Notes: generated by a model from the sequence alone, not told the origin. Shown: positions 4,131 to 20,181, counted from the stretch's first letter. The stretch is DNA of 38,023 nucleotides from Acidobacteriota bacterium (GCA_031418175.1 JANOWX010000554.1:1-38023); one strand, 5' to 3'. Program-made: numbers and translations.

Positions 4131-4886
4131 TTACGTCTTGACCCCCATCCCGATATACCCCGTCAACGTGCTGCGGCTGAATTGAAACGCGAACTCATCG
4201 CTCACTTCGCCCAGCCACAACATCCGCCAAAACGCCCGCTTCAACTGCGGCGCTGAACCGCGCAGCACCGTCACCTGCAAGCCGCTGGCCGCGCACATGC
4301 CGCGCAATTCCGCCGGTTTGATGAAATGGCTTAGTTGATGCAAACGCGGCGGCGTGTTCTTGACGAACCATTCGACGCCTTTGATCGCGACGAGCCAGGC
4401 GATGACATTACGGTTGAAGGTGGCGAAGAAAAACAGCCCGCCCGGTGCGAGCACGCGCGCGCATTCAGCCACCACGCGTGCGGGCGCATCTACGTGTTCG
4501 AGGAAATCCAGCGCGCAAACAGCCTGAAACGACGCGTCCGCATACGGCAACCGATAGGCATCACCGGTTTCGTAACGCACGCGGCCCGACGCATCGTAAC
4601 GCCGCGCCACCGCCAGGCTTTCCGCCGAAGCGTCCAAGCCCGTCACGGCAAGACCGCGCTCAGACAGGTAATTCGCCAGGAAGCCCGCGCCGCAACCGAC
4701 ATCCAAAACGTGCGCTGGCGAGGTTGGAAAGGCGCGTTGAATTTCGGCGGCAATCCACGGGTTGCGCATGCGCGACTCGGCCCGCAACAGCGCGACGGGG
4801 TCGTCTTGCGCGGTGTACCAGCGCTCGCCTAGGGCGTGGTAGATGTCGTTGTTGACTTGGCCCGCTTGCTCAGTCGTGACGGCCAT
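4131..4886 (-). CDS. Class I SAM-dependent methyltransferase (UbiG-like)
   Basis: SAM motif I is VLDVGCGAGFLANYL, followed by GLDASAESL. The N-terminus (NNDIYHALGERWY...RMRNPW) resembles UbiG-type O-methyltransferases. ATG at 4886 overlaps the upstream ORF by 58 nt. Confidence 0.8.
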   Translation of the reverse strand: MAVTTEQAGQVNNDIYHALGERWYTAQDDPVALLRAESRMRNPWIAAEIQRAFPTSPAHVLDVGCGAGFLANYLSERGLAVTGLDASAESLAVARRYDASGRVRYETGDAYRLPYADASFQAVCALDFLEHVDAPARVVAECARVLAPGGLFFFATFNRNVIAWLVAIKGVEWFVKNTPPRLHQLSHFIKPAELRGMCAASGLQVTVLRGSAPQLKRAFWRMLWLGEVSDEFAFQFSRSTLTGYIGMGVKT

Positions 4887-5362
4887 AGCAAATTCCAGTA
4901 GAGCAGTTGATAGAGTCCGAAGCCGAGCGTCAGCAGCGCATTGCCCAACAGGAACGCGCGCTCGCGGCCGCCATAGCCGATGAAGGAGAGCGTTTGCCCA
5001 TGCCACGCCGGCCAGAGCAACCCGGCGCTGACAAGCACCAACGGATGCAGCATAAACATCAACGCGTGCACCCAGTGTTCACCAGCGCCGCACAGCCGTA
5101 AATGCAACGGCTCGTCTTTAGTGACGAAGAGGCAGGAAAAAAGGCTCAGACCGGCATAAACACTGGCCGAAACAGCGGACGGCGGCACGGCGAAGAGCCA
5201 GCCAAAACAAAGCAGCACGGTCAAGGTATCCAGCGGATGCCCCAGCCGTTCCCAACGCGGCAATGAGCGCTGCCGATGAAAATAAAGCTCATCCACCGCC
5301 ATGCAAAGGGATTGCAAAACAAACGGGAGGAGCAGCCAGCGTGCGGGAATCATGAAAGGCAT
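4829..5362 (-). CDS. Polytopic membrane protein of unknown function, in the PKS operon
   Basis: 177-aa ORF with 4-5 hydrophobic helices and a DELYFHRQR motif. It sits 28 nt downstream of the PKS stop. No family recognised. Confidence 0.55.
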   Translation of the reverse strand: MPFMIPARWLLLPFVLQSLCMAVDELYFHRQRSLPRWERLGHPLDTLTVLLCFGWLFAVPPSAVSASVYAGLSLFSCLFVTKDEPLHLRLCGAGEHWVHALMFMLHPLVLVSAGLLWPAWHGQTLSFIGYGGRERAFLLGNALLTLGFGLYQLLYWNLLWPSRLSKRAKSTTTSTTP

Positions 5363-5390: not shown

Positions 5391-6569
5391 CTACAACTTC
5401 CTGAACAACGCCCCGGCAATCGTCAGCCCCGGCCCAAAGGCCAGGCTGCCGACCAGCGTGCCCGCTTTGATTTCAGGCGTCTGCAACATCCGCGCCCAGA
5501 CGTGCGGCAGCGTCGCCGAAGACATATTGCCGTGTTCGAACAGCAGCGCCCGGCTGATAGCGACCTGGTCTTCGCGCAGGCCCAGCAGCGTTTGCACCGA
5601 ATCAATGATGCGCGGCCCGCCGGGATGCACGGCGAAACTGGCGCGGTCGCGCGCCGCTTCATAGCTTTCGCCCGCCTGCGTGAACAGCCGTTGCAAATAG
5701 CCGGGCAAGGCGGCGGCGATCTTTTCGGGCACCTCGCGCGCCAGCGTCATGCGGAAGCCCCATTCCGACGGCACCCAGGTCATGTCGGCCAGGGTGTTCG
5801 GCACGACTTCTTCGCGCACGGCCAGCACTTCAAAGCCTGACGGCGGCGGCGCTTCCTGCAAGGTCAGCGCGTAGCGGATGTGGCCGTCGGCGAACAGGCT
5901 TTGCACGACCAGTTGTTCAGGGCGGTGATCGCGCGGGTTGAAATGCAGCGTGCACAATTCGGTGTGCACGATCTCGGCGCGCCCCTTTTCGGGGAAAGAG
6001 GCCGCGTCGCTTTGCGGATTGAGCAGCAGCCCGCGGGCCACGCGCAAGGCGGGCACGGCGGCATAGCAGCCCATGTGATAAACCTGGGTCGCGCGCGTTT
6101 GCTGGTGCCATTCCTTGGCATCGAGCAGGCGTTGAATTGCGCTGGGCGAGGCGTAACCGGTGCAGGTGACGTGCAACAGATCGGCGGGCGCGGCGCTTTC
6201 ATCCACAAAGAAATCGTTCATTGCGCGGTTCGCCATCTCGGCAAAAAACTGGTTGCGCGCGTCCAGCCCGCGCCCGTCGGCGCTCTCGTGCAGGTTGAAA
6301 ATCTGCATGCGCGGCCAGTCCTGATGCAGAAAATCTTCGAGTTCCGAATAGCGCTTGCCGATGCTCGCGGGCGAACAGCCATAACGCCTGACCAGCCGCT
6401 CCATGCGCTTGAGCCATTCCTGTTCAACCTGGGAATGGCCGTTGGCCCCATTGGCGGTGGCTTCGGCGCGGGCGTGCGCGGCGGCCAGCCAGCTAAAGGC
6501 GTAATCCTGGGTGCGAATGTAGCGCGGGAGGATGACCTTGAAATCAGCGAGATAAGTGCGATGTTTCAT
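5391..6569 (-). CDS. Type III polyketide synthase (chalcone/stilbene synthase superfamily)
   Basis: Active-site Cys context HVTCTGYASP, plus VHPGGPRIID and the C-terminal GFGPGLT signature typical of CHS-like type III PKS. Confidence 0.9.
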   Translation of the reverse strand: MKHRTYLADFKVILPRYIRTQDYAFSWLAAAHARAEATANGANGHSQVEQEWLKRMERLVRRYGCSPASIGKRYSELEDFLHQDWPRMQIFNLHESADGRGLDARNQFFAEMANRAMNDFFVDESAAPADLLHVTCTGYASPSAIQRLLDAKEWHQQTRATQVYHMGCYAAVPALRVARGLLLNPQSDAASFPEKGRAEIVHTELCTLHFNPRDHRPEQLVVQSLFADGHIRYALTLQEAPPPSGFEVLAVREEVVPNTLADMTWVPSEWGFRMTLAREVPEKIAAALPGYLQRLFTQAGESYEAARDRASFAVHPGGPRIIDSVQTLLGLREDQVAISRALLFEHGNMSSATLPHVWARMLQTPEIKAGTLVGSLAFGPGLTIAGALFRKL

Positions 6570-6742: not shown

Positions 6743-6998
6743 TCACGCTGCCTGTTTATACGTCCTCAATTGCCGCCCTAAAGTTTCTACGATCGCGGTC
6801 AACTCGCTGACCTTGAGAGGTAAGTCGCTCACGCCGCCGCGCGCTTCGATCACGTGTGCCAAAGCACGCGGAAACGTGTGCCAAAGCACGCGGAAACGTG
6901 CGCGGGTCTTCATCTGCCAGCGCTGCGCGCAAATAATTGGCCGCCTCTTCCGCCGAAGCCCGCAAATCTTCGTGCAATAATTCCGCCCAAGTCATCAT
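6743..6998 (-). pseudogene. HigA-like addiction-module antidote gene disrupted by a 22-bp tandem duplication
   Basis: ATG 6998 overlaps the toxin stop (ATGA). The N-terminus is MMTWAELLHEDLRASAEEAANYLRAALADEDPR. The duplication at 6854-6897 shifts the frame into an Arg-rich tail ending at 6756. Removing one unit gives a 77-codon ORF ending at TGA 6743-6745 (...ALAHVIEARGGVSDLPLKVSELTAIVETLGRQL...). Confidence 0.65.
6854..6897. repeat. Perfect 2 x 22-bp tandem duplication inside the antitoxin gene
   Basis: gtgtgccaaagcacgcggaaac occurs at 6854-6875 and is repeated exactly at 6876-6897. Confidence 0.95.
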
Positions 6999-7335
6999 GG
7001 CTTTTCCCTTTCCTGATGATCGCGCCAATACTTTTGCGCTTGTTCAATGTCACGCATTTGTGTGCGTTTGTCGCCACCACAAAGCAACAAGATCACCCGT
7101 TGTCCAAGCAACCCGAAATAGACGCGATAACCAGGACCGTAATCAATGCGCAACTCATAAACGCCACCGCCGACGGTCTGTAATCGCCCGGATTCCCTTC
7201 TTCCAAGCGCGTCATTCGGGCGCGGATACGCATTCTGGCTTGCGCGTCAGCCAATGTGCGCAACCATTTAGCAAATGGCCGCGCCCTGGCCGCCGTTTCG
7301 TATATGACAAGCTCTTTCGGCTGACCGTCAAACAT
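6995..7335 (-). pseudogene. HigB/RelE-like addiction-module killer gene with a 1-nt frameshift
   Basis: The N-terminal frame (ATG 7335) reads MFDGQPKELVIYETAARARPFAKWLRTL...RLEEGNPGDYRP. The family-typical continuation GGGVYELRIDYGPGYRVYFGLLGQRVILLLCGGDKRTQMRDIEQAQKYW lies in the neighbouring frame from about 7171 and ends at TGA 6995-6997. The frames differ by one missing base near 7171-7176. Confidence 0.7.
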
Positions 7336-7394
7336 CTGGGCGCCTTGGCTACTTGGTAAATGGTGCACGGACGCGAAGCCGTTACAGCCCTATC

Positions 7395-8624
7395 TCACGC
7401 CCGCTTACGCAATTCGCTGCGTAACGTGCCGCGCGCAACCTCGATCAAGATTTCGGCGTTGGTCACGCGTTGAAAATTCTCAAAGGCCGCCTGCTCCACC
7501 GCCGCCACCAGATTGGCGTGCAAGCCGCGCGCGCCGGTGCCGCGTTTGAGGCTGCGTTCGATGATGAAATCGAGCGCGCCGTCGGTGACATTTAACTGCA
7601 AGCCTTCAAGCTGGAATTCGCGCACGAATTGCGGCAGCACGTTGTCGTGCAAAATCTGTTTGAGCGTCGCCGCCGACAAGGCCTGAAAGCGCACGATGCG
7701 CGCAAACCGCCCCATCAGTTCGGGCAAAAAACCGTAGCGTTGAAAGCCTTCGATCTCTTCCAGCACCGGCGAAGCGGCGGCGCTGCTGTTGGCCTTGTCC
7801 TTAAAGCCGCCCTTGAAGCCAATGGATTTGTTATTCGCCTTGAGCACGTCGTCCATGCCGGAAAAGGTGCCGCAGGCGATAAACGGGATATCGAGCGTCG
7901 AGAGCGGCGCGCGCTGCCCATACGACGAAGCGCCGAAATCCATCGGCACCATCACGTCTTTGCCCTCCAGCATTTTCAGCAATTCGCGCTGCACGCCGTA
8001 ACCCGACACGTCTTTGGTGGTGCCTTCGCCGGCGAAGCGCGCGTTGCTGGTGGACGAGGCCAGTTTGTCGAATTCATCCAGGCAGATCACGCCGCATTGG
8101 GCCAGCAGCAAATCGCCTTCTGCCGCATAAATCAGCCGCGTCAAAATCGTGTGCACGTCATCGCCGACATAACCGCTCTCGGTGAAGCTGGTCACGTCCA
8201 CGATCAGCGTGGGCAAATGAAAAAGTTGTTGAAAGAGCGATTCGACCAAAAACGTCTTGCCGCTGCCCGTCGGCCCGGCCAGCAAGGTGTTTTGTTTGGG
8301 TGGCAACAGGCGGCGCGTTTCGCCGTCCACGTGCAAACGCTTCAAGCGGCGGATGTGCCGATAGGCCATCAGCGACAGCGCGCGGCGCGGTTCGTCCTGC
8401 CCTTTGTAGCCCAACTGTTCCAGCCGCGCGTAAATTTCGGGCGGTGGAATCAGCGGCAACGAACGCACAAATTCGCGCAACCCATCGCGTTCTTGCCGCG
8501 CTGGCGCGCGCTCCGGTTCCATAAACTCATCGTCATCGAAGGGAAAGTTCAACCATACCTCCTGGTCAACTCTGCAATCCGGGACTGTGCGAAAAGTAAT
8601 GTTAGCGTCGGGGGCGCATATCAT
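7395..8624 (-). CDS. ClpX-family AAA+ ATPase paralogue lacking the N-terminal zinc-binding domain
   Basis: Walker A LLAGPTGSGKT, pore loop ESGYVGDDV, Walker B VICLDEFDKL, SIGF at the IGF-loop position, and a ClpX-like C-terminus GTGARGL. There is no C4 zinc finger. ATG 8624 abuts the upstream stop. An alternative ATG is at 8522. Confidence 0.8.
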   Translation of the reverse strand: MICAPDANITFRTVPDCRVDQEVWLNFPFDDDEFMEPERAPARQERDGLREFVRSLPLIPPPEIYARLEQLGYKGQDEPRRALSLMAYRHIRRLKRLHVDGETRRLLPPKQNTLLAGPTGSGKTFLVESLFQQLFHLPTLIVDVTSFTESGYVGDDVHTILTRLIYAAEGDLLLAQCGVICLDEFDKLASSTSNARFAGEGTTKDVSGYGVQRELLKMLEGKDVMVPMDFGASSYGQRAPLSTLDIPFIACGTFSGMDDVLKANNKSIGFKGGFKDKANSSAAASPVLEEIEGFQRYGFLPELMGRFARIVRFQALSAATLKQILHDNVLPQFVREFQLEGLQLNVTDGALDFIIERSLKRGTGARGLHANLVAAVEQAAFENFQRVTNAEILIEVARGTLRSELRKRA

Positions 8625-9932
8625 CTACTTTCGCACGCTGGCGCGCAAATCCTTTTCGGCCCCGTGTTGCGCGTGGCAACTGACACAACGCGCCTGGCCT
8701 GTTTGCAAAGGCTGCGTTTCGGCCATCCTGGTTAGCGCTGCCGCAAAGGCCGGTTGCAAGTTGTGGCATTGCGCGCAGGCTTCGCGCACGTAGCGTTTCA
8801 ACGCCGCGCCCGCTGTGCCGCCCAAATGGCAATCCGCGCATTGCGCGCGGCCCTGTGCCTGGCCTTGTGTGTGCAGCATGTGGAATTGCTCGCGCAGGTT
8901 GTAATCAACGGTGCGCCCCGGCAAGCCATGTTGTTGCCAGGTTGTTTGCGACAACCCCTCCCACAGCCACAGCCCATTCCTGACCGGATAACTCACGGCG
9001 CGCCCGTGCAGCGTTCGACGGCCGCTCTGGTCACTATTCGCCTCGCGCTGCGCTTGATGGCAGTGGGTGCAAACCGCGTTGGCCACCAGGGCCGGTTTGA
9101 ATTCCGCCCCGCGATGTTCGGTGTGGCAAGCGCGGCAACTCAGCCCTACGTTGAAATGCCGCTGCGCAAGCGCGGCCTGAAAAGTTGGCGTCGAATGACA
9201 AGCCGAACACTGCTGCGACATCGTCCCGGTCAGCGTATGGCAGGCGCCGCACGCAGCGCTGGCCTTGCTGGCGACTGTGCTCGTGGCTGGCAAAGTCCCG
9301 GACGCGTGCGCTGCCGACAGCGGCCCCGGCGAGTACACGCGCGGGAAGGCCCACGCCAGCACGGCTGCGCCAAGCAGCGAGAGCGCCACACCCGCTGCCA
9401 ACAAACGCAATGGGCTGCGCCGGGATTGCCCAACAAGCTGTTCGGTCTGCGGTGACTCATTGGGCAGCTTGTTGCGCGCAAACTCGGCCCCGGCGCTTTG
9501 CAGCCGCCGTTCCCAATACCTTTCCAGGATGCGTTCATCGGCGGGCGTGCCAACATAACTCGGCGGTTCGGTTGGCTCAGGATCGGCCAGTGCCAGTGCC
9601 AGCGCGAGCGCAAAATCCACCGTGATTTGCAACGTCGCCTGCTGCACGGCCAGACGCAACAGATACGGGCCGATACGCAGGGTGTCGCCTTCATTCAACG
9701 GCGCTTGCTGGACGGCGGCGTCATTTACCAAGACCGGGCTGGCTGCCGCGTCCGCCAATGCCGAAAGCCAGAATGCGCCGTCGTGGTGCTTGATGCCCGC
9801 GTGCGCCGGCGCGACTGCCGGATGCGGCAATTGCAAATCACTCGTCAGCGCGCGCCCGATCAACAGGCTCTCGCCCGCCAACGCGCTGGCGTCGGCATTG
9901 CGATCGGTACGAATGATGCGAAACGTGTTCAT
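8625..9932 (-). CDS. FHA-like domain / single TM / heptaheme c-type cytochrome fusion
   Basis: The N-terminus LLIGRALTSDLQL...HAGIKHHDGAFWL...GDTLRIGPYLLRL is FHA-like. TM is LRLLAAGVALSLLGAAVLAWAF. Seven CxxCH motifs follow: CGACH, CSACH, CRACH, CTHCH, CADCH, CAQCH, CVSCH. Confidence 0.8.
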   Translation of the reverse strand: MNTFRIIRTDRNADASALAGESLLIGRALTSDLQLPHPAVAPAHAGIKHHDGAFWLSALADAAASPVLVNDAAVQQAPLNEGDTLRIGPYLLRLAVQQATLQITVDFALALALALADPEPTEPPSYVGTPADERILERYWERRLQSAGAEFARNKLPNESPQTEQLVGQSRRSPLRLLAAGVALSLLGAAVLAWAFPRVYSPGPLSAAHASGTLPATSTVASKASAACGACHTLTGTMSQQCSACHSTPTFQAALAQRHFNVGLSCRACHTEHRGAEFKPALVANAVCTHCHQAQREANSDQSGRRTLHGRAVSYPVRNGLWLWEGLSQTTWQQHGLPGRTVDYNLREQFHMLHTQGQAQGRAQCADCHLGGTAGAALKRYVREACAQCHNLQPAFAAALTRMAETQPLQTGQARCVSCHAQHGAEKDLRASVRK

Positions 9933-9938
9933 ACGGGC

Positions 9939-12188
9939 TCAACGCCAACTGAAATAGAGCACTTGCCAAACGTGCAAGCACAACAACGCCAGGAATAACG
10001 CCACGCCGGCCAAATGCGGCCAAATCCAATAGCGCAACAGCCGCTGCCCCGCGATCAAGCGGTTGAGTTGGCGCAACAACCCGGTGTCGCCTGATTCGGC
10101 GGCGCGCAACACCGCCCGGCGCGCCAGCAAATCTTCTAACAGCCAGGGCTGCGCTTCGTGTTTGGTCAACCAACGCGGCGCCAGCACGTTGATCAATTGC
10201 CCCAGCAAGCCGGTCAAACAAACCACCAGCAACGCCAGCGCCAGCAATCTGGTCAACGCTGTGGGCCGCGCCGTCTGGCCCGCCAGCAAACCGTGCCAGA
10301 CAAATAAGAGCAACGTCCACAGGCCAAGGTAATTGTGCGCCAGCAGCCAGTAATGCAAGCGCCCCAGCCGCGCCGTCCGCGCGCGTTTGCGCCACGCATA
10401 CAACCCCGCGCCCAGCAAACCCTCCGTGCCCAGCAAAGCGCTGCCCCAGGCCCAACCGCGCGTTCCGCCATACTCCAGGCCGAATAACGGCTGCGCGCAG
10501 GCCAACAAGAGCAGCAGCAGAATTCCGGCGTTGCCCGCCAGATGAATCAAGCTGACATTGCGGTGCGCGCGCCAGCCTTCGATCAATGGCAGTTTCTTGC
10601 CGCCGCGTTTTTGGTACACCCGCGCCAACCGCGCGGCCTTGATGGAATGCAGTTCGGCGAACTGTTCGTCGGGCACGACGCGCCGCAACGCGCCCGTCGG
10701 GCAATTCTCTTCGCAACCATGGACGTGCGGTTTGCGCGCATCGGCATTGCAAGCCGCGCCTACACACAGATCGCACTTCACCGCCACCGGCGAGCTGTCA
10801 CGCTGACTCTCTTCCCCTCCCTCGGTCTCCCCGTCTCCCGCACCCTCCGTCGCTTCGCGCGCCACCAAAGTAATCGCATCGTAAGGGCACAACGCAGCGC
10901 AATCGCCGCAACCGATGCAGGTTTGGGCGTCAATCTCTACGCGGCCCTCGGGCAAAACCTTGATCGCGTTGACCGGGCAGCCGGTCAGGCAATCCGGCTG
11001 GCGGCAGTGATGACAAGCCGAGGGCACCAGCAATGGTTGCAAGCTGGGCCGCAATGCTGGCGGCCACGCGGCGGGCGGCGCGAGCGCCGTTGTTCGCGTC
11101 AAGCTGAAACCTTTCAATGAGAGCCGCGACTGCCCGTGCAAATCCTGACAGGCCGCCGCACAGTTGCCGCAACGTATGCACGTGCGCGCATCAATCGCTA
11201 ATAGGCTGGCCGTCGCCGCCACGCCGCTGCGGATCAAGGCGGACTGCGCGGCAGCCAGCGGCAGCGGCTGGCGTTGATACGCCTGTTCAGCGGCCGGCGC
11301 CAGCTTTTTCAGGGCGGTGTTGATGTCTTCGCTCAACGCGCCTGTTGCGCGCAACAGCGTGACTGAGATTTCCAACACCTCGGCGCGCGTCAGCAACGTG
11401 CCGGTTTGCGGCCAGGCTAAGTCGCTGGCCGCGCCTTCCAGCCCCAGACAATGGCCCGCGCCCAAATACTCTTCGTGCGCCTGCGCGGCCCAATCCGCAA
11501 TATCGGCGTCGTGCTGGTGCTCTTCGCTGGCCTTGCGCAACTTCAGCCAGCCGGTTTTGAGAATGCACAGCCGCCGTATCGGTTCGCCTTCCTGAAACAG
11601 CACGTGCCCCGGCTCGTACACGCGAAATTGCGAAATCGTGGCGAGCTTGCCCAGGGCTTCGGCATCCAGCCGCGTCGCCACGCCGAGGTCTTGCAAAAAC
11701 AGCGCGCGGCTGTTGCGGCGATAGGCCTTGTCCAGCACCGCGGCGAATTGCGGCAGTTTGCGCAAGAACGGCAGGGCCTGGCGCTGCACCTCCAACACCA
11801 GCACCGGCACGTGCGATGGCGCGCACACCGTCGAAGAGCGCGGCAAATTGGCCAGCACCGACATTTCGCCGAACAGCGAACCGGGCGGCAATTCGCCGAC
11901 CTTTGCATAGCCGCGTTTGACGAATACATCCGCCACCCCTTCGATCACAAAAAAGAAGCGGTCGCCGCCCCACTCGCCTTCGCGCACGATCTCTTCGCCC
12001 GGCTCGTAAGTCAGCAGGCGCAAATGTGGCGCGAGCCGTTGGCCCCCGTATTCACGGCCCTCCAACAGCGCCTGCAATTCGGCGTCAGGCAGACCATGGC
12101 CCGGCGCCAGGCCCGACAATTCGGCCAGCGCGGCAGTCTTCGCTATGGCAGCCAGCACGTCAGCAGGCTCGCGGTGTTCTTGCGGCAT
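9939..12188 (-). CDS. Two cNMP-binding-like domains + four-cluster [4Fe-4S] ferredoxin domain + C-terminal about 5-TM domain
   Basis: cNMP motif GSLFGEMSVLANLPRSSTV, with a second similar module. Cys clusters are CIRCGNCAAAC, CHHCRQPDCLTGCP, CIGCGDCAALCP and CDLC...CEENCP. The C-terminal hydrophobic helices carry several His (LIHLAGN, LLAHNYLG, VWHG, WPHLAG, LHVWQ). Confidence 0.8.
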   Translation of the reverse strand: MPQEHREPADVLAAIAKTAALAELSGLAPGHGLPDAELQALLEGREYGGQRLAPHLRLLTYEPGEEIVREGEWGGDRFFFVIEGVADVFVKRGYAKVGELPPGSLFGEMSVLANLPRSSTVCAPSHVPVLVLEVQRQALPFLRKLPQFAAVLDKAYRRNSRALFLQDLGVATRLDAEALGKLATISQFRVYEPGHVLFQEGEPIRRLCILKTGWLKLRKASEEHQHDADIADWAAQAHEEYLGAGHCLGLEGAASDLAWPQTGTLLTRAEVLEISVTLLRATGALSEDINTALKKLAPAAEQAYQRQPLPLAAAQSALIRSGVAATASLLAIDARTCIRCGNCAAACQDLHGQSRLSLKGFSLTRTTALAPPAAWPPALRPSLQPLLVPSACHHCRQPDCLTGCPVNAIKVLPEGRVEIDAQTCIGCGDCAALCPYDAITLVAREATEGAGDGETEGGEESQRDSSPVAVKCDLCVGAACNADARKPHVHGCEENCPTGALRRVVPDEQFAELHSIKAARLARVYQKRGGKKLPLIEGWRAHRNVSLIHLAGNAGILLLLLLACAQPLFGLEYGGTRGWAWGSALLGTEGLLGAGLYAWRKRARTARLGRLHYWLLAHNYLGLWTLLLFVWHGLLAGQTARPTALTRLLALALLVVCLTGLLGQLINVLAPRWLTKHEAQPWLLEDLLARRAVLRAAESGDTGLLRQLNRLIAGQRLLRYWIWPHLAGVALFLALLCLHVWQVLYFSWR

Positions 12189-12282
12189 AGACTTCAGAAG
12201 TGTGGGGTGAAACTGCTTGCTAAAGGGAGAAGCACTTTACGGAGTGGTCTTTGTACTGTAAAGCGCGCGGCTTGCCAAGTGC

Positions 12283-12416
12283 CCTGGGTACGCACGGCTT
12301 CCAGCCTGCGGGCGTGGCGGCAGACCGATTGGCGCTGAAAGGAAACCCGCCGGCATATTTCCGTCTCACGCCAATCCGCACGCCAATCCGCACGCTGGAA
12401 GCGGTGCGTACCCAGG
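12283..12416. repeat. MITE/REP-like element bounded by about 27-bp inverted repeats (family B)
   Basis: cctgggtacgcacggcttccagcctgcg (12283-12310) pairs with gcacgctggaagcggtgcgtacccagg (12390-12416), 2 mismatches. It contains an internal 12-bp tandem cgccaatccgca x2 (12369-12392). The second copy is at 17777-17877. Confidence 0.7.
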
Positions 12417-12501
12417 TTTGCTTGCGGCGCGCGCGGGGCGTCACTACAATGCATTCGCAATTTCCCATTCACCAATGTTCGCTGCACACAGGTTCACGCT
12501 T

Positions 12502-14769
12502 ATGAAATCAAACGCCAAACGCTTTTTCGTCACGCTCTTCGCCCTCGGTTTCGTCACGCTGCTGGTCTGGCAACGTAACCCGGCCGCTGCGGCTGCCACT
12601 GCTAACTCGTCGAATGCCGCTAAACGCACGCAAGGCACACCGACTTTCAACAAAGAGGTCGTGCGCCTATTTCAAAAGAATTGCCAAAGCTGCCACCACC
12701 CCGGCGACATCGCGCCTTTCTCGTTGATGAGCTACAAAGAAGCGCGCCCCTGGGCCGTCTCGATTCGTGAAGCGGTCGTGACCAAAAGCATGCCGCCGTG
12801 GAAGCCGCAACCCGGCTGCGGCGATTTCAAAGACCAGCGCGCGCTGACGCAGGATGAGATCAATACCATCGCCGCCTGGGCGGACGCGGGCGCGCCCGAA
12901 GGCAACGCTGCCGACATGCCGAAGGCGCAGGAATTCCCCGATGGCTGGGCGCTGGGCGCGCCTGATTTCATCGCGACGCCGGCAGAGAGCTTCACGCCGC
13001 CGCAAGGCAAAGACACCTATCGCTGTTTCGTCGTGCCGACGGCGCAATTGCGCGGCGACCGTTGGATTCAGGGCTTGGATGTGCGGCCCGGCAACAGCAA
13101 GATCGTGCATCACGTGATCGCCTATGCCGACCCGCTGGGCAAATCAATCGCGTTGGATCAGCAGGAAGCCGGTCCCGGCTACACCTGTTTCGGCGGGCCG
13201 GGCTTCGACATTTCGCTGGGCATCAATGAAATTCTGGCGGGCAATTCGCCGATGCTGGGCGGTTGGGCGCCCGGTTCGCGCGGCTATTTCGCGCCCGAAG
13301 GCAATGGCATCAAGCTGCCCAGCAATGCGAACGCGCGCGTCGTCTTGCAAGTGCATTACCATCCGACCGGCCAACCCGAAACCGACCGCACCTCGGTGGG
13401 TTTCTATTTCGCGCAAAAACCTGTCGCGAAAGCGATGCTGCCGTTGCCGCTGGTCAATCAAACCTTCACCATTCCGGCGGGCGCAAAAGCGCATCCGGTG
13501 ACGGCACGGTTCACCGCGACCGGTTTCGCGGGCAAAATTCTGGGCATCACGCCGCACATGCATTTGCTGGGCAAACAAATCAAAGTCGAAATGACGCAAC
13601 CGGGCCAGCCGACGCAATGTCTGGTCAACATCCCAAAGTGGGATTTCAATTGGCAGGGTTCGTATCTTTACCAAAACGCGATCTCCTTCGCGGCCAACTC
13701 ACGCATTGATTTGAGCTGCGTCTTCGACAACTCGGCGGACAATCCGTATCAGCCGAACAACCCGCCAAAGCCTGTGAAATGGGGCGAAGAAACGACCGAC
13801 GAAATGGCGCTGGCCTTCATCGCCTTCACGCTGGATGCGTTGACGCTGCCAACTTCGTCGCCGCAACTGACCGAAGTAAGCGCCGATGACAAAGGCAATC
13901 TGTTCGTCAACGGCATCAACTTCCTGGCGGGCGCGGACATTGAGGTCAACGGCCAGCGCCTCGCTGACACACAAGCTGACGCGAGCGGCAAAATCTTTTC
14001 CGGCAATCAATGGAAGGTCTTCGCCGCGCCCGGTCAGAGCGTCAACGTGACCGTCATCAACCCCGACGGCGTGCGCACCGCCGCGCGCACCTTCACCCGC
14101 AACGTGACCGCACGCACAGTGGCTGCCGTTTCAGCAGCCAGTTACGCCGCGAACGCCATCGCGCCCGAAAGCATCGTCGCGGCCTTTGGCGAATATCTGG
14201 CCAGCGGCAATGCCAGCGCCAGCGCCACGCCGCTGCCCACCGAACTGGCGGGCACGACGGTGCGCGTCAACGGCATCCTGGCGCCGCTGTTTTTTGTCTC
14301 GCGGCAACAACTCAATTTCCAGATTCCCTTCGGTGTGACGTCCGGCAACGCCGTGATTGAAGTGATGACCAGCGACGGCCAGCTTTCGCGCAACACGCTG
14401 ACGCTCAGCGCGATTGCGCCGAGCCTGTTCACGGCCAACGCGTCAGGCACCGGCGTGCCCGTGGGCGTCGTCTCGCCCGACGGCATTGGTTTTTATCCGA
14501 TCAGCAATGCGGATGGCACGCCCATCGCGCTGAATGGCGGCGATTATCTGGTGCTCTTCGGCACCGGCTTCCGCCGCGCGGCGACTGAGACCGTCGAGAT
14601 CACCATCGGCGGCCGCAAAGTCCCGACGATTTACACCGGCGCGCAAGGGGGCCTGGTCGGCGTGGATCAACTCAACACCGAATTGCCGAAGGATGTTTCG
14701 GGCTTGGTGGATTTGGTGCTGACGGTGAACGGGCGACAGGCGAATGTGGTGAAGTTGCGGTTGAAATAA
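12502..14769 (+). CDS. Exported heme-c domain + PHM/DBH-like type II copper monooxygenase core + IPT-like segment + Soli_cterm-like domain (paralogue 1)
   Basis: Signal/anchor MKSNAKRFFVTLFALGFVTLLVW. Heme motif CQSCH with downstream MPPW. Copper-ligand pattern HHVIAY, QVHYH, PHMHLLG, TDEM. The C-terminal SAASYAANAIAPESIVAAFG...LAGTTVRVNGILAPLFFVSRQQLNFQIP... resembles TIGR03437 as I recall it. Confidence 0.75.
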   Translation: MKSNAKRFFVTLFALGFVTLLVWQRNPAAAAATANSSNAAKRTQGTPTFNKEVVRLFQKNCQSCHHPGDIAPFSLMSYKEARPWAVSIREAVVTKSMPPWKPQPGCGDFKDQRALTQDEINTIAAWADAGAPEGNAADMPKAQEFPDGWALGAPDFIATPAESFTPPQGKDTYRCFVVPTAQLRGDRWIQGLDVRPGNSKIVHHVIAYADPLGKSIALDQQEAGPGYTCFGGPGFDISLGINEILAGNSPMLGGWAPGSRGYFAPEGNGIKLPSNANARVVLQVHYHPTGQPETDRTSVGFYFAQKPVAKAMLPLPLVNQTFTIPAGAKAHPVTARFTATGFAGKILGITPHMHLLGKQIKVEMTQPGQPTQCLVNIPKWDFNWQGSYLYQNAISFAANSRIDLSCVFDNSADNPYQPNNPPKPVKWGEETTDEMALAFIAFTLDALTLPTSSPQLTEVSADDKGNLFVNGINFLAGADIEVNGQRLADTQADASGKIFSGNQWKVFAAPGQSVNVTVINPDGVRTAARTFTRNVTARTVAAVSAASYAANAIAPESIVAAFGEYLASGNASASATPLPTELAGTTVRVNGILAPLFFVSRQQLNFQIPFGVTSGNAVIEVMTSDGQLSRNTLTLSAIAPSLFTANASGTGVPVGVVSPDGIGFYPISNADGTPIALNGGDYLVLFGTGFRRAATETVEITIGGRKVPTIYTGAQGGLVGVDQLNTELPKDVSGLVDLVLTVNGRQANVVKLRLK

Positions 14770-14781
14770 GCGCATCAGCAT

Positions 14782-15102
14782 ATGACTCCGAAAGTGCAAA
14801 CCATTCTGGCGGAATTGAAGCAGCGGCTGACGGCCATTTACGGCGAGCGGCTGGTCAGACTGGTGCTGTTCGGTTCACAGGCGCGCGGCGACGCCACACC
14901 CGAATCGGATATTGACACGCTGGTGGTTTTACGCGGGCCGGTCAATGCGGGTGAAGAAATCCGGCGCACCAGTTCGTGCGGCGCGGCTTTATCGTTGAAG
15001 CACGACGTGTTGATCTCGTGTGTGTTTGTTTCCGCCGACAGCTTTCGACAGGAGCAAAGTCCGTTATTGCTGAATGTGCAGCGGGAAGGAGTCGCCGTAT
15101 GA
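14782..15102 (+). CDS. Nucleotidyltransferase-domain protein (MNT-type antitoxin)
   Basis: The motif LVLFGSQARGDATPESDIDTLVVL (GSxxRG...DxD) is present. The stop overlaps the HEPN start (ATGA at 15099-15102). Confidence 0.85.
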   Translation: MTPKVQTILAELKQRLTAIYGERLVRLVLFGSQARGDATPESDIDTLVVLRGPVNAGEEIRRTSSCGAALSLKHDVLISCVFVSADSFRQEQSPLLLNVQREGVAV

Positions 15103-15482
15103 CAGCGTCCCAAACCGCACTGGTAGAAAAAGCGCGCGACAGTTTGCGCGCCGCCCGGCTGCTGGCCCAAGGCGGATTGCACGATTTTGCGGTGGGGCGG
15201 GCGTATTACACGATGTTCTATCTGGCCTCGGCGCTGCTGTTGGAACAAGGGCTGACCTTCTCCAAACACGGCTCGACCATCAGCGCCTTTGGTCAGCATT
15301 GGGTAAAAACAGGTCGCCTGGATGCCAAATATCACCGCGCCTTGCGCGAGGCTTATGAAGCACGCATCGTGGGCGATTATCAGGCCACCGCACATTTGAG
15401 CGAAGCTGATGCAGCAACCCAAATCGCACAAGCTGAAGAATTCATGACGATGGCCGAAGCTGTCCTGGCAAGTTTGCCGTAA
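15099..15482 (+). CDS. HEPN-domain protein (toxin partner of MNT)
   Basis: MTASQTALVEKARDSLRAARLL...AVGRAYYTMFYLASALL...YEARIVGDY shows the helical HEPN pattern and is translationally coupled to MNT. Confidence 0.8.
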   Translation: MTASQTALVEKARDSLRAARLLAQGGLHDFAVGRAYYTMFYLASALLLEQGLTFSKHGSTISAFGQHWVKTGRLDAKYHRALREAYEARIVGDYQATAHLSEADAATQIAQAEEFMTMAEAVLASLP

Positions 15483-16316: not shown

Positions 16317-17003
16317 ATGCCTGAACAAACCGCCCTCGCCCCCAACCTCGCCGACGCCGTTGAATTCGCCGAGAACCCCGAACCGCGCTGTCCTTGCGTC
16401 TTGCTCGTTGACACCTCCGGCTCGATGCAGGGCGCGCCCATCGCCGCGTTGAATGAAGGCTTGCGCGCTTTCAAAAACGATTTGATGAAGGACGCGCTGG
16501 CCTCGCGCCGCGTCGAAGTCGCCATCGTCACCTTTAGCAGCAACGTGCAGATCGTGCAGGATTTCGTCACCGCCGATCAGTTCGAACCGCCCACGCTGCA
16601 CGCCGAGGGCGCGACGCTGATGGGCAGCGCCATTCATCAGGCGCTGGATTTGCTGGCCGCGCGCAAGGCGCAATACCGCACGAGCGGCGTGGCCTACTAC
16701 CGCCCGTGGGTCTTTCTGATCACCGATGGCGAACCGCAGGGCGAACCCGAAGACGTAATTTTACAAGCCTCCCAACGCATCCGCGATGAGGAGCAGAACA
16801 AGCGCGTGGCCTTTTTCGCCGTCGGCATCGAAGAGGCCAATCTCGACCGCTTGCGGCAAATCGTCGTGCGCACGCCGGTGCGGCTGATCGGATTGAATTT
16901 CGTCGAGATGTTCGTCTGGCTCTCGCGCAGCACCCAAGCCGTCTCGCATTCACGCGTGGATGAACAAGTCGCACTGCCACCGCCCGGCTGGGGAACAGTA
17001 TGA
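16317..17003 (+). CDS. vWA-domain protein (TerY-like) of a TerY-P-type triad
   Basis: RBS GGAAGGA. MIDAS motif LLVDTSGSM (DxSxS). Further matches are VAIVTFSS and FLITDGEPQG. It overlaps the next gene by 4 nt (ATGA). Confidence 0.85.
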   Translation: MPEQTALAPNLADAVEFAENPEPRCPCVLLVDTSGSMQGAPIAALNEGLRAFKNDLMKDALASRRVEVAIVTFSSNVQIVQDFVTADQFEPPTLHAEGATLMGSAIHQALDLLAARKAQYRTSGVAYYRPWVFLITDGEPQGEPEDVILQASQRIRDEEQNKRVAFFAVGIEEANLDRLRQIVVRTPVRLIGLNFVEMFVWLSRSTQAVSHSRVDEQVALPPPGWGTV

Positions 17004-17770
17004 AGACGGGGGACGGTATGAACGCAGCCTGGCGCGTCATCGGCGCTTCGGTGCAGGGTGTCAGCCACATCAAGAGCGGGCAGCCCTGTCAGGACGCGCA
17101 CGCCTGGGCCGTCTTGCCGGACGGCACGTTGATCGCCGTCGTCGCCGATGGCGCGGGTTCAGCGGCGTTGGCTGAAGTGGGCGCACAACTGGCCGCCAAG
17201 ACGGCAGTGAATTGCTTGCGGCGCGAGTTGATCGAAAACGCCTTGCCTGTGAATGAAGCAGCCTGGCGAGTGCTGTTGTTCGAGGGGTTGAAAGCGGCGC
17301 GGCAACGTTTGGAAGACGAAGCGCAAGAACGCGGCTGTGCCTTGCGCGATTTGGCGGCGACGCTGATCGTGGCCGTCGCCACCGCCGAACTGGCCGCCAC
17401 CGCGCACGTCGGCGATGGCGCGGCGGTGTTGAAAACCGCTGACGAGTTGTTGCTGCTGGCCGCGCCTCAGATGAGCGAATACGTCAACGAGACGACCTTT
17501 CTGGTTTCCGCCGATTATTTGCAGGCGGCGCAATTCGCTTGCTGGCACGGGCGCGTGCGGCAATTGGCGCTGTTCACCGACGGCTTGCAACGGCTGGCGT
17601 TGCAGATGCCGCTGCAACGACCGCACGCGCCGTTCTTTGCGCCGCTGTTTCAGTTCGCGGCGAATGCGGGCGCGGATGCCGAAGCGCAATTGGCCGCGTT
17701 CCTGCATTCCCCGCGCATTGCCGATCGGGCGGATGACGATTTGACCTTGTTGTTGGCGGCGCGCAATTGA
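17000..17770 (+). CDS. PP2C-family protein phosphatase-like protein of the triad
   Basis: The motifs GASVQGVSHIKSGQPCQDA...IAVVADGAGSA...HVGDGAA...LFTDGL form a PP2C-like acidic pattern. An alternative ATG is at 17018. Confidence 0.8.
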   Translation: MKTGDGMNAAWRVIGASVQGVSHIKSGQPCQDAHAWAVLPDGTLIAVVADGAGSAALAEVGAQLAAKTAVNCLRRELIENALPVNEAAWRVLLFEGLKAARQRLEDEAQERGCALRDLAATLIVAVATAELAATAHVGDGAAVLKTADELLLLAAPQMSEYVNETTFLVSADYLQAAQFACWHGRVRQLALFTDGLQRLALQMPLQRPHAPFFAPLFQFAANAGADAEAQLAAFLHSPRIADRADDDLTLLLAARN

Positions 17771-17776
17771 CGCACA

Positions 17777-17877
17777 CCTGGGTACGCACCGCTTCCAGCG
17801 TGCGCGCCGTCAAGTCGGAGCGTTGGCCGGAATGGATCGCTCGCCAGCACTGCACGCTGGAAGCGGTGCTACCCAGG
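17777..17877. repeat. Family B inverted-repeat element inserted between the PP2C and kinase genes
   Basis: cctgggtacgcaccgcttccagcgtgcg (17777-17804) pairs with tgcacgctggaagcggtgctacccagg (17852-17877). The arms match the 12283-12416 element. It fills most of the 116-nt gap in an otherwise overlapping operon. Confidence 0.75.
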
Positions 17878-17886
17878 TTTTCCACG

Positions 17887-20181
17887 ATGTTCCTGCGCCG
17901 CGAAAGCACCCAAGCAATCCTCAACCTGGCCGACAGCGCGCTGCTCGGCACGGGCGGCGAAGCGCGCATTTACAGCGTGCCCAACGAACTTGACCTGGTC
18001 GCCAAAATCTATCACCAACCCGACGAGAGCTACGCGCATAAGCTGGCCGCGATGCTCGCCAATCCGCCGAAAGACCCAGCCAAAGCGCAAAACCACACCT
18101 CCATCGTCTGGCCCACTGAATTGCTGCGTTCGCTCGACGCCAAAAATCAGGTCTGCGGTTTCCTGATGGAACGCGTGCATCGTATGCGCTGTGTGATTGA
18201 TGTCTATCATCCGGGCACGCGGCGGCGGCAAGCGCCGCTGTTCAATTATTCGTACTTGCATCGCACGGCGCGCAATCTGGCGGCGGCGGTGGGCGCACTG
18301 CACGCGGGCGGTTACGTCATCGGCGATGTCAACGAATCGAATGTGCTGGTGTCGGAAACAGCGCTGGTGACGCTGGTGGATACCGATTCGTTTCAGGTGC
18401 GCGACCCGCACAGCGGCGTCGCCTATCGCTGCCCTGTCGGCAAGGCCGAATTCACGCCGCCCGAATTGCAGGGCAAAGTTTTTGCCGAGCTTGACCGCCA
18501 GCCGGAACACGATCTGTTTGGGCTGGCCGTGCTGATCTTTCAGTTGTTGATGGAAGGCACGCATCCGTTCGCCGGTGTTTATACCGGCGCGGGCGAACCG
18601 CCGCCCATCGAGGCGCGCATTCTGGCCGGGCATTTTCCTTATGGCGCGGGCAAGGGCGCGCCGTATCGCCCGATGCCCGCCGCGCCGCCGTTGGGGATGC
18701 TGACGCCGCAACTGCGGCAGTTGTTCATTCGCTGTTTTATCGAAGGCTTACGCCAGCCGCAGGCGCGGCCCAGCGCGCACGCGTGGCAGGAGGCGTTGAA
18801 AGAATCCGAAGCCGCGTTGCGCCCTTGCGCGGCGAATAGCCAGCACCTTTACGGCCAGCATCTGGCTGCCCAGCCTTTATCGGAATGCCCGTGGTGCAAA
18901 CGCGCGCGCCAACTGGGCGGGCGCGACCCCTTCCCTTCGCTGGCGGCGATCAAGCAGGGGCAGCATTTGCAGCGGCTGCCGCGCAAGGCCAGACGTGTGA
19001 TCCATCCGACCTTTGCCACGCAACGCGCGTTGACGACGCACGCGAGTTGGGCCGCGCAACAGTTGAGCGTGCCGGCTTACACGCCGGTGCTGGGGCTGCT
19101 CAATCCGCCGCCTGCCGCGCCCGCACCGACATTGTTCAACAAGCTTTGGAACACGACGCGCTTTGTGCTGACGGGTTTTATGATGGTGCTGATGCTGCAA
19201 AGTTTTTGCGCGCCGGGCATGCAAGAGTTGAGCTATGTCGCGCAACAGGGCGCCGCGCCGCCCCCGCCGCGCTTGCCGTTCACGCGCCCGCAAAAAGTGT
19301 TGACGGGACACAGCGACCGCATCTATGCGTTGGCGGTTGCGCCCGACAACCGTGTGATCGCCACCGGCAGCGCCGACCGCACGGTCAAATTGTGGGACGC
19401 GGCGAGTGGCGACTTAAAACTGACGTTGACCGGCCCGCGCGACGATCTGGCGGCGCTGGCGTTTTCGCCGGATGGCAAATTGCTTGCGGGCGGCACGGGC
19501 GATGCGGCGATTTATCTGTGGGGCACAGAGAGCGGGCAGGTAAAACGCACGTTGAATCGTCACCAGGCGATCGTGACCGCGCTGGTTTTTTCGCCGGATG
19601 GGCAAACGCTGGTTTCGTGCGGCCGCGATCAAAAGATCGTGCAATGGGATGTGCGGACGGGGCGGCCCGTGCGCGAACTGACTTGGGCTTCGCGCTGGAT
19701 GTCCACGGTGCTGTTCACGCCGGATGGGCGGCAGGTGCTGGTGGGCGACGAATACGGCGCGGTGATTGCTTTCGACGCGCAGAGCGGCGCGGTCACGCGC
19801 AATTTTGTCTGGTACGAACAGGTTGGATCGCCGACCGACCGCATCCGCGCGCTGGCGCTGTCACCCGATGGCCAACGCGTCGCTTTTGCCTTCCTGGGCC
19901 GCAAAGTCGAAATCTGGGAGCTGACAACGAAAAAACTTTTGCAGACCTTGCGCGACAGTGCGGGCATCACCAACACCGTGGCCTTTGCGCCCGATGGCCA
20001 GCGCATGCTGAGCGGCAATCACAACGGGACATTCAATCTGTGGGACTTGCAAACAGGCGCGAGCCTGCGCGCGTGGCAATCGCATACGTCGGCGGTGACG
20101 CGGCTGGCGTTCGCGCCTAATGGCAAAATGATCCTTAGCACAGCCGACGGCTCACCCTATGCGGTGAACGTGTTTGAATAG
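17887..20181 (+). CDS. Ser/Thr protein kinase (YegI/TerY-P type) + hydrophobic segment + 7-blade WD40 propeller
   Basis: Kinase motifs are [23 protein letters not shown] and LVDTDSF. The hydrophobic segment is [19 protein letters not shown] (about 19160-19215). Seven WD-like repeats run from [16 protein letters not shown]...VKLWD to the C-terminus. I chose ATG 17887 because the upstream ORF extension only translates the repeat element. Confidence 0.8.

Follow-up and report, generated by a model that had tools for sequence, protein, structure and literature searches.

The window analysed here is a stretch of 38,023 nucleotides from an Acidobacteriota bacterium (GCA_031418175.1 JANOWX010000554.1:1-38023), and the system in question is a compact cluster of three minus-strand genes within it, here called A, B and C, which encode an iron-sulfur (FeS) protein fused to cyclic nucleotide-binding (CNB) and membrane domains, a membrane-anchored multihaem cytochrome c, and a ClpX-like ATPase. 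The three open reading frames (ORFs) had been described in an original prediction made from the sequence alone, and all of them are present where it had placed them, as is the 6-nt spacer between A and B (9933-9938):

9939-12188, minus strand: gene A, 749 amino acids (aa); tandem cNMP-binding domains, a four-cluster ferredoxin and a putative di-haem-b domain with five transmembrane (TM) helices in one polypeptide
8625-9932, minus strand: gene B, 435 aa; an FHA domain, a single TM helix and, in the periplasm, a heptahaem c domain
7395-8552, minus strand: gene C, 385 aa from a TTG at 8552 (longest ORF, to an ATG at 8624, 409 aa); ClpX-like AAA+ protein lacking the zinc finger

In current databases the products carry the names “cyclic nucleotide-binding domain-containing protein” (A), “cytochrome c3 family protein” (B) and “AAA family ATPase” (C). 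Profile searches recovered the domains named by the original prediction, cNMP_binding, Fer4, FHA and multihaem cytochrome by means of Pfam and ClpX by means of NCBIfam. For comparison, 35 loci, mostly from Blastocatellia, were obtained by a genome scan with a pattern derived from B, and additional A-B loci by exact look-ups and a metagenome scan. The motifs described below are invariant in relatives of only 28-40% identity, which shows that none of them is a chance pattern; the Cys clusters and the CxxCH motifs, on whose conservation the original prediction had staked its claim, are invariant among homologues, and so are the histidines of the TM helices.

Gene A starts at the ATG at 12188, and the consensus of its family opens with the same MPQE; more than 120 full-length homologues (E <1e-150) bear generic names only. 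Its parts are the following:

11787-12011, minus strand: CNB-A, residues 60-134 (PF00027), phosphate-binding cassette intact, FGEMSVLANLPRSSTV
11274-11666, minus strand: CNB-B, about residues 175-305, degenerate, second Pfam stretch
10674-11201, minus strand: four-cluster ferredoxin domain, residues 330-505, with Fer4_11 and Fer4_7 matches; Cys groups C337/340/343/347, C392/395/400/404, C424/427/430/434 and C472/475/492/496
9942-10562, minus strand: membrane domain, residues 543-749; five TM helices by hydropathy and AlphaFold2 (AF2), N-in/C-out

The two cNMP-binding-like modules that had been noticed are matched by Pfam in two stretches (cNMP_binding, E 1e-21; PF00027, 77.1 bits against a gathering score of 27.5), and the N-terminal half of an AF2 model, which was built from a 37-sequence alignment and is confident for residues 1-310, resembles the tandem-CNB regulatory subunits of PKA and PKG (Foldseek, E about 1e-13); the full-length model of A matched tandem-CNB proteins only. 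In CNB-A, G107, R117 and T120 of the cassette are kept in 31 of 31 homologues and E108 in 30 of 31 (family consensus FGEMsVLag.pR.aTvrAP), but the phosphate-binding Arg is replaced in CNB-B (W-x-Q-T), and the consensus there, hCfG.ea.t.d..W.qt.tll, is likewise without it.

The ferredoxin domain contains the four predicted Cys clusters, spaced CxxCxxCxxxC, CxxCx4CxxxCP, CxxCxxCxxxCP and CxxCx16CxxxCP; all 16 Cys residues are invariant in two separate sets of homologues (40-90% identity), 37 from databases and 31 full-length orthologues taken from the loci. Fer4_11 scores 33.7 bits against a cut-off of 26.2. The nearest NCBIfam models are those of the YgfT/AegA N-terminus, followed by DsrO, HybA, DmsB, TtrB and HmcB, and A belongs to none of the named ferredoxin equivalogs (DmsB, NrfC, DsrO, HybA, TtrB, HmcB, YgfT, AegA), the scores being 45-50 bits against cut-offs of 200-1154. 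AegA and YgfT have such a four-cluster N-terminus fused to an NAD(P)H flavoprotein. No signal peptide is found on A, and the ferredoxin domain comes after the cytoplasmic CNB domains; the CNB and FeS parts should therefore both lie in the cytoplasm.

As to the membrane domain, the R/K-rich loops 600-612 and 672-716 would be inside by the positive-inside rule, and with N-in/C-out topology TM3 and TM5 therefore both run from the inside to the outside. The original prediction had suggested about five His-bearing TM helices; five helices there are, but invariant His residues are on only three of them, namely H549 on TM1, H618/H632 on TM3 and H725/H739 on TM5. Thus TM3 and TM5 each bear an H-x13-H pair, and the five residues are invariant in 37 and in 31 homologues. 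When the membrane domain alone was searched with phmmer against 1.84 billion cluster representatives, 87 proteins were found (E up to 0.001), among them stand-alone proteins of 200-320 aa; of 86 homologues drawn from these representatives, all that cover the respective column have His, in 78/78, 80/80, 52/52 and 52/52 cases at the four paired positions, with zero substitutions. One relative, P0310 (1277 aa), consists of a multihaem cytochrome c region (Cytochrom_c3_2, MtrC-like) and a C-terminal copy of the membrane domain which keeps all five His, and this fusion hints independently at a partnership of the module with c-haems. The only Pfam match of the membrane domain alone is DUF4405, which is sub-threshold (E 0.033, 15.2 bits against 26.7); remote homologues give sub-threshold matches to Ni_hydr_CYTB (5e-4), DUF4405 (3e-3 and 9e-3) and Ferric_reduct (9e-3), which we take to be cytochrome b families of one di-haem clan. 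It is thus likely that A binds two bis-His b-haems, one by each membrane face, and the possible b-haem of the original prediction is now much better supported by His columns that are never substituted. If this is correct, the domain would be a new membrane haem-b module outside the families of Pfam, with 87 representative relatives.

Gene B had been described as an FHA-like head followed by one TM helix and seven CxxCH motifs, and this architecture was borne out:

9669-9863, minus strand: FHA domain, residues 24-88 (Pfam PF00498)
9345-9416, minus strand: TM anchor, residues about 173-196, hydrophobic and conserved in the alignment, with SRRSPLR on the cytoplasmic N-side
8664-9308, minus strand: haem c domain with seven CxxCH, at C228, C242, C266, C288, C365, C386 and C416

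PF00498 scores 32.2 bits (cut-off 20.7, E 1.4e-7), and a profile of the B family matches the FHA domains of mycobacterial FhaA and of GarA, OdhI and EmbR at about 1e-8. Of the FHA residues, G26-R27, H44 and N70 are kept in the window, and the Ser-Arg pair is replaced by A41-P42; the Ser-to-Ala change (VAPAH) had been read correctly, and the neighbouring Arg turns out to be changed as well, to Pro. This loss is confined to the clade of the window, comprising also L004, L001/L009 and L040 (A 58-89% identical), where the motif reads VAPAH, VALAH, VAPVH or VQPFH; in 24 B orthologues from Blastocatellia it is V-S-R-[TL]-H. Because basic residues flank the TM helix on its N-terminal side, the predicted topology has a cytoplasmic FHA domain, with the haem domain on the outer side. 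Each of the 32 full-length B orthologues from the loci has seven CxxCH, no more and no fewer, Cytochrom_c3_2 scores 50.9 bits against 25, and there are motif-level matches of the B profile to the multihaem cytochromes MtrA (6r2q), 6i5b and 6qvm. In an alignment of 19 sequences with identities down to 29%, the CxxCH motifs are invariant together with seven extra His (H209, H259, H273, H309, H351, H354 and H423), which are candidate distal ligands and whose number is exactly that needed for bis-His ligation of seven haems. By these marks B is a multihaem cytochrome c with its haems downstream of the TM anchor and predicted to be attached covalently.

For gene C, a 0-nt junction to B had been reported, which holds for the longest ORF only. 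Homologues of C are about 380 aa long and open with MNFPFDD, which is residue 25 of the longest ORF in the window, and a ribosome-binding site lies at the corresponding position:

8558-8563, minus strand: Shine-Dalgarno sequence AGGAGG, with a 5-nt spacer to the TTG start codon of C (8552-8550)

Two short Logan contigs with an identical B protein have a called C of 385 aa, 72 nt after B. From this comparison the start of C is most likely the TTG at 8552 and the gap to B 72 nt; the 0-nt junction is probably an artefact of choosing the first ATG. The likely gap is still operon-like, and with their close spacing on the same strand the three genes are still close enough to be taken as one operon.

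The ClpX-like motifs GSGKT, GYVG, DEFDK and SIGF are all present as predicted. Chains of ClpX in the PDB match C at E about 1e-50, and the NCBIfam ClpX models (NF003745 / TIGR00382) match at 234.3 bits versus 359 and 202.2 versus 370.75, both below cut-off, spanning model positions 58-395 only. Since the match begins at position 58, the zinc finger must be absent; indeed, the N-terminal 55 residues, which had been recognised as standing in place of the C4 zinc domain, are devoid of a Cys4 and show the conserved pattern MNFPFDD...LPLxxPPEI. A comparison of 25 family members reveals little or no variation in Walker A and B, the GY[VI]G pore loop, the Arg finger, sensor-2 and I268/G273/F274 (IGF), the motifs taking the forms GPTG[SC]GKT, DEFDK and GARGL. 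As the IGF loop is kept, docking to ClpP is plausible on sequence grounds. The RKH loop, used by ClpX in recognition of ssrA-type substrates, is missing, the aligned segment being MDFGASSYGQRAP versus PPQGGRKHPQQE in ClpX, and substrate selection by C must therefore differ from that of ClpX. The IGF loop of the window's C (residues 268-277, about 7800-7830) has a 4-residue insertion, KSIGFKGGFKDKAN, where the 24 aligned relatives all read KSIGFKDKAN; the insertion has the appearance of a 12-nt GFKx tandem duplication.

The linkage of the genes is of two kinds. Wherever the flank is visible, in the 35 genome loci as well as in the metagenome loci, A is directly upstream of B; 24 loci have C after B, and about 15 lack it. 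The synteny expected by the original prediction therefore stands for A and B, but for C in about half of the loci only. Over the same distance C is 68-73% identical, A about 40% and B about 35%. A metagenome scan for the C family yielded 80 loci; those relatives which adjoin B or FPR (the product of the fourth gene, see below) are at about 66-70% identity or more, those at 48-66% are in unrelated gene contexts. In a neighbour-joining tree of 96 C-family sequences, all 24 A-B-linked copies fall into one 25-tip clade, whose remaining member begins at the edge of a contig and has FPR after it. Because the linked copies are monophyletic, mere chance adjacency of C to A-B was considered and rejected. 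By its sequence relationships, the C of the operon is a specific orthologue group in a wider family of zinc-finger-less ClpX paralogues, linked to A-B and not indispensable; the “dedicated unfoldase” of the original prediction thus has its clade, but it is optional across A-B loci. The wider family appears to be uncharacterised. Five of its loci, from distant lineages (L105, L111, L112, L114 and L115), carry two such paralogues in tandem, of about 372 and 436 aa, and in about 9 other loci members lie near Ser/Thr kinase-RDD proteins.

The fourth gene, for FPR, is downstream in 34 loci. FPR is made up of two N-terminal TM helices, a 2x[4Fe-4S] ferredoxin, a TrxR/YpdA-like FAD and NAD(P)H domain and a zinc-ribbon insert, and judged from these domains it is the likely NAD(P)H entry point in most loci. 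When flanking genes were clustered for about 45 A-B loci in search of further partners, the only recurrent extra gene inside the cluster was one for a secreted PIG-L-type deacetylase, in 15 loci. This PIG-L/LmbE-type protein of about 300-320 aa has a signal peptide and is encoded between B (or C) and FPR, for example at 9537-10505 of L011 (Blastocatellia). Kelch propeller, AhpC/TSA fragments, M16 peptidases, TonB-type barrels, PNPase, PD40 and ChaN were dismissed as lineage-specific neighbours which are not members of the system. L003, which diverges most among the loci, encodes three secreted cytochromes beside A-B-FPR, their haem motifs numbering 4, 8 and 9, which fits a periplasmic relay.

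All 35 scanned loci are evidently from Acidobacteriota. Ten loci (L008, L017, L024, L025, L029-L031, L033, L036 and L038) are from metagenome-assembled genomes titled “Heliomicrobium sp.” or “Heliobacteriaceae” (Firmicutes). By their proteins A, B, C and FPR as well as by their flanks, these loci resemble those labelled Acidobacteria, gene clusters 17, 18, 19 and 24 of L017 being present in L011 and L014 too; the Firmicutes labels of these ten binned assemblies look wrong.

Domain content, conserved cofactor ligands, the logic of topology and the linkage of the genes, as established directly from the sequences, lead to a reading which on balance we hold to be probable: A and B would be the core of a regulated, quinone-independent conduit in the inner membrane, by which electrons pass from the cytoplasm to the periplasm. 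From these observations we infer the binding of the cofactors, the direction of flow, donor and acceptor, three regulatory roles and, indeed, conduit function itself. In most lineages the donor would be the membrane-anchored FPR, the net reaction running from NAD(P)H to a periplasmic acceptor; in the clade of the window, a set of genes for a polyketide synthase (PKS), a membrane protein and a UbiG-like protein, possibly a pathway to an alkyl-quinone lipid, may provide an alternative input. Electrons would enter the four-[4Fe-4S] cytoplasmic wire of A, cross the bilayer by way of two bis-His b-haems held between TM3 and TM5, the inner one on H618/H725 and the outer one on H632/H739, and then pass to the seven bis-His c-haems of the TM-anchored, periplasmic B. 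Such outward flow would be aided by the membrane potential and would dissipate it, which is also the case for NOX, cytochrome b561 and Fre-MsrQ.

Because an outward leak of this kind is costly, post-translational control is proposed at three points. The tandem CNB region of A may sense cAMP or cGMP, only the CNB-A cassette being functional. The FHA domain of B may make a protein contact, which is probably phospho-Thr-dependent in Blastocatellia and phospho-independent in the clade of the window. Lastly, the zinc-finger-less, ClpX-like C could unfold or degrade a subunit, by which the conduit would be turned off or remodelled. Taken to its full extent, the proposal is a bacterial machine for gated electron export of a class not recognised before, that is, a wire from NAD(P)H to the periplasm which bypasses quinone, is switched directly by cyclic nucleotide on the FeS subunit and by assembly of the cytochrome subunit in dependence on phospho-Thr/FHA, and has its lifetime controlled by a private ClpX-like/ClpP protease; we offer this extended version tentatively, and equally tentative is the inventory of the wire, which would hold FAD, 6 FeS clusters, 2 b-haems and 7 c-haems.

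Several observations weigh against the conduit, or against parts of it. The membrane domain of A is above threshold in no Pfam family, and its AF2 model (pLDDT, the predicted local distance difference test, of 75) has no fold match in the PDB, the best Foldseek E being 0.5; it is therefore the His pattern on its own that argues for b-haem binding. The FeS domain is poorly modelled by AF2 (pLDDT 33-47), and no geometry between the cofactors can thus be derived. C is absent from about half of the A-B loci and therefore cannot be essential to the core function, and FPR is absent from the 38-kb window as well as from the other three loci of its clade. The Ser and Arg which bind phospho-Thr are missing from the window's FHA domain (V40-A41-P42-A43-H44), and no nucleotide cyclase is linked to the cluster in any locus. 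In Blastocatellia the flanks consist of housekeeping genes, with no acceptor candidate among them, and the outward direction is argued from thermodynamics alone.

Should the proposal hold, it would be the first case in which control by a second messenger and by Ser/Thr phosphorylation acts on an electron-transfer complex itself and not on its transcription. Transmembrane conduits made of FeS, b-haem and c-haem cofactors are known; in those of which we are aware, regulation is via transcription or substrate supply. Post-translational gating of respiratory or redox-balancing electron flow would become directly testable, and a widespread family of zinc-finger-less ClpX paralogues would gain a role. 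Acidobacteriota of soils are an abundant and poorly understood phylum, in which an NAD(P)H-driven, quinone-independent export of reducing power could serve periplasmic copper monooxygenases, metal or siderophore reduction, or extracellular electron transfer.

Among the rival explanations, all of them unlikely, the least so is a quinol-linked respiratory module similar to CymA, ImcH or CbcL, in which the membrane domain of A oxidises or reduces a membrane quinone and in turn exchanges electrons with B, with the FeS domain as a side branch or redox sensor. For the clade of the window, an equally unlikely extension has the quinone be an alkyl-benzoquinone made by the products of three adjacent genes:

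5391-6569, minus strand: type III PKS (Pfam Chal_sti_synt_N/C), at the same position in L001, L004 and L040
4829-5362, minus strand: membrane protein of 177 aa, rich in His, which has homologues in L001, L004 and L040, always together with PKS and methyltransferase
4131-5006, minus strand: UbiG-like O-methyltransferase (TIGR01983, 133 bits versus a cut-off of 103)

Operons that combine the gene of a type III PKS with those of a methyltransferase plus an oxidoreductase make alkylresorcinol-derived polyketide quinones, which are alternative electron carriers (PMC9927152, PMC10896814). Measured against these, the window has the PKS and the UbiG-like methyltransferase, and the third gene is that of the unclassified 177-aa membrane protein. 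It is a point for the quinol-linked module that all three genes are syntenic with A-B-C in four of the four loci of the clade; in L001, those for the 177-aa protein and the methyltransferase are on the opposite side of the operon. The synteny of PKS with A-B-C is, however, restricted to this clade, and roughly 40 loci of Blastocatellia lack the set and have FPR in its place, a majority for which the module offers no explanation. Moreover, the 177-aa protein has no Pfam or NCBIfam match and is not recognisable as a hydroxylase or other oxidoreductase, no quinone-site motif was identified, and it is not obvious what a 16-Cys cytoplasmic wire would do in a path from quinol to periplasm. The distance between C and PKS is 825 bp in the window, as compared to 126-328 bp in L001, L004 and L040, and a decayed toxin-antitoxin pair appears to lie in between. 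This refers to two small ORFs on the minus strand (6756-7368), which in part, and below threshold, match the models of a RelE/ParE toxin (TIGR02683, positions 3-42 of 95) and of the corresponding antidote (TIGR02684); they look like a decayed insertion. The longest ORFs of methyltransferase and 177-aa protein overlap by 178 nt; homologous methyltransferases have only 252-259 aa, and the true start is therefore probably internal, at a Met near 4886.

The same wire might instead run inward, taking up electrons from periplasmic or extracellular reductants (Fe(II), reduced humics or a partner cytochrome) and passing them through B, A and FPR to NAD(P)+ or ferredoxin; we regard this as improbable, and so too the corollary that electron uptake would add to the membrane potential. 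The composition would be the same as in the outward conduit, the cofactor chain being reversible in principle, and bis-His multihaem cytochromes and [4Fe-4S] clusters are typically of low potential, which would suit such a path. But inward flow works against the membrane potential, reduction of NAD(P)+ needs donors of very low potential, cultivated relatives of these lineages are mostly aerobic heterotrophs, and the neighbourhoods give no sign of lithotrophy.

Just as improbable, in our estimate, is a signalling device in which the haems of B sense the redox state of the periplasm and the clusters of A that of the cytoplasm, together with cNMP, the output being FHA recruitment and proteolysis through the ClpX-like protein. 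It would account for the presence of CNB, FHA and ClpX-like modules in one operon, and it would agree with a VWA/PP2C/atypical kinase triad nearby in the window (VWA and PP2C also in L040) and with the location of some distant C homologues near Ser/Thr kinases. A sensor, however, hardly needs 13 redox centres (4 FeS clusters, 2 b-haems and 7 c-haems) plus a flavoprotein, C is dispensable in half the loci, and neither a transcription factor nor any other domain for an output is present. A Pycsar- or CBASS-type system of anti-phage defence, with A as a cNMP-binding membrane effector and C as its AAA+ partner, is scarcely credible and was rejected after a PADLOC test, as the similarity of CNB-A to the cNMP-binding domain of the PycTIR and TIR-effector models (E about 1e-8) and the weak match of C to IetA ATPases (1e-5) are limited to generic CNB and P-loop parts with no full-length effector match, no locus has a linked cyclase or other defence gene, inheritance is vertical among housekeeping genes (PNPase, M16 peptidases), and the redox cofactor sites are invariant across classes.

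The outward conduit of A and B can be compared to a number of known systems. In sulfate reducers, the Tmc, Hmc and DsrMKJOP complexes span the membrane with a multihaem cytochrome c in the periplasm, a cytochrome b within the membrane and an FeS protein on the cytoplasmic side. The TmcABCD, HmcABCDEF and DsrMKJOP complexes are covered in the literature (e.g., PMC10861901). A-B share this overall layout, and the FeS domain of A gives weak matches to DsrO and HmcB; these concern the generic ferredoxin region only, all matches are far below curated cut-offs, and no subunit is orthologous. For its FeS part A has, in place of an HdrD/CCG protein, a 16-Cys ferredoxin of the DmsB/NrfC type that is fused to the membrane domain, the latter does not resemble NarI (no Pfam or NCBIfam match to the Nitrate_red_gam and CCG families is found in A-B), and the CNB and FHA fusions, the ClpX-like partner and the Acidobacteriota hosts set the system further apart.

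Electron transporters with two b-haems stacked on His pairs, such as Fre-MsrQ, FoxB, the NOX/ferric reductases and cytochrome b561, connect a cytoplasmic reductant to an acceptor outside. A resembles them in its H-x13-H pairs and in its sub-threshold matches to Ferric_reduct, Ni_hydr_CYTB and DUF4405; unlike them, it has five TM helices, is fused to ferredoxin and CNB domains, and would deliver to a heptahaem cytochrome and not directly to a substrate. Membrane-anchored multihaem cytochromes c, some with b-type or FeS partners, also feed the periplasm in Geobacter and Shewanella (ImcH, CbcL and other Cbc complexes, CymA); these take their electrons from the quinol pool, and their FeS subunits are on the periplasmic side. 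The haem domain of B has motif-level similarity to MtrA and DmsE-type decahaem proteins, but homology above family cut-offs is lacking, the FeS wire of A is placed in the cytoplasm, and an NAD(P)H flavoprotein is linked.

On the level of single domains, A has the 16-Cys four-group pattern of AegA/YgfT, HydN, HycB and DmsB/NrfC/PsrB; it differs from DmsB, NrfC and PsrB in that there is no Tat signal and in being fused to a 5-TM domain of its own, unrelated to NrfD, DmsC and PsrC. With ClpX, C has in common the AAA+ core, GYVG, IGF, Arg finger and sensor-2, but it lacks both the C4 zinc domain and the RKH loop and is one of a distinct family of paralogues, about 380 aa long, which occurs in many gene contexts. 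The N-terminal, cytoplasmic FHA domain of B with the TM anchor next to it is reminiscent of YscD of type III secretion systems, of TagH/Fha1 of type VI secretion systems and of FhaA/GarA (Yop-YscD_cpl, TagH, FhaA and GarA are matched); B differs from those FHA scaffolds in that its part outside the cytoplasm is a heptahaem cytochrome and, in the clade of the window, in the loss of the Ser-Arg pair. Type VI secretion pairs the FHA protein Fha1 with ClpV, a Clp-type AAA+ protein, and the pairing of B with C is alike in this respect. The original prediction knew of no characterised system with the composition of the trio, and none has come to light: A-B-C is matched neither by a model of Pfam, NCBIfam or PADLOC nor by a PDB entry, and the literature searched contains no description of it. 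Transmembrane FeS/b/c redox complexes are already known; new here are the haem module in the membrane, the fusions to CNB and FHA domains and a ClpX-like clade dedicated to the system.

On the other side of the operon, divergent from A, lies a gene of a further redox protein:

12418-14769, plus strand: secreted copper monooxygenase fusion, likely start at an ATG near 12502

It combines a monohaem cytochrome c, a PHM/DBH-like copper type II monooxygenase, TIG and a Solibacter C-terminal domain (Pfam Cu2_monooxygen, Cu2_monoox_C, Cytochrome_CBB3 and TIG; NCBIfam Soli_cterm; one CxxCH), and L040 has the same divergent neighbour. It is a candidate for the periplasmic electron acceptor in the clade of the window, where its position beside the operon recalls the eukaryotic pairing of cytochrome b561 with DBH/PHM. 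A bacterial copper monooxygenase with a built-in cytochrome domain for electron entry is unusual. Farther on in the window there are a VWA protein (16317-17003), a PP2C phosphatase (17000-17770) and an atypical kinase with a C-terminal WD40 propeller (17767-20181), a triad which resembles YegL/YegK/YegI of E. coli; PP2C and VWA are at the same relative position in L040. The triad is a possible source of the phospho-signal for FHA proteins, though the window's own FHA domain is without Ser and Arg. Taken together, the neighbours suggest that this clade has its own electron input, a specific acceptor and a Ser/Thr signalling set nearby, which are not general to the system. Between the copper monooxygenase and the triad is an NTP_transf_2 and HEPN pair (14782-15482), that is, a toxin-antitoxin system of the MNT/HEPN type.

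A scan of the window for promoters and terminators gave nothing above chance, and a search with Rfam gave no riboswitch, only spurious matches of plant-miRNA hairpins to an inverted repeat upstream of A. This repeat, a near-perfect hairpin of 170 nt (12263-12432) in the divergent intergenic region, has arms of 29 nt (12283-12311 / 12388-12416) that are 93% complementary and a 12-nt tandem repeat (12367-12390); folded as DNA it has -63.5 kcal/mol (z = -6.85). A third copy of the hairpin arm is found at 17777-17805, at the start of the kinase ORF, and the element looks like a miniature inverted-repeat transposable element (MITE) or a repeat of the repetitive extragenic palindromic (REP) type.

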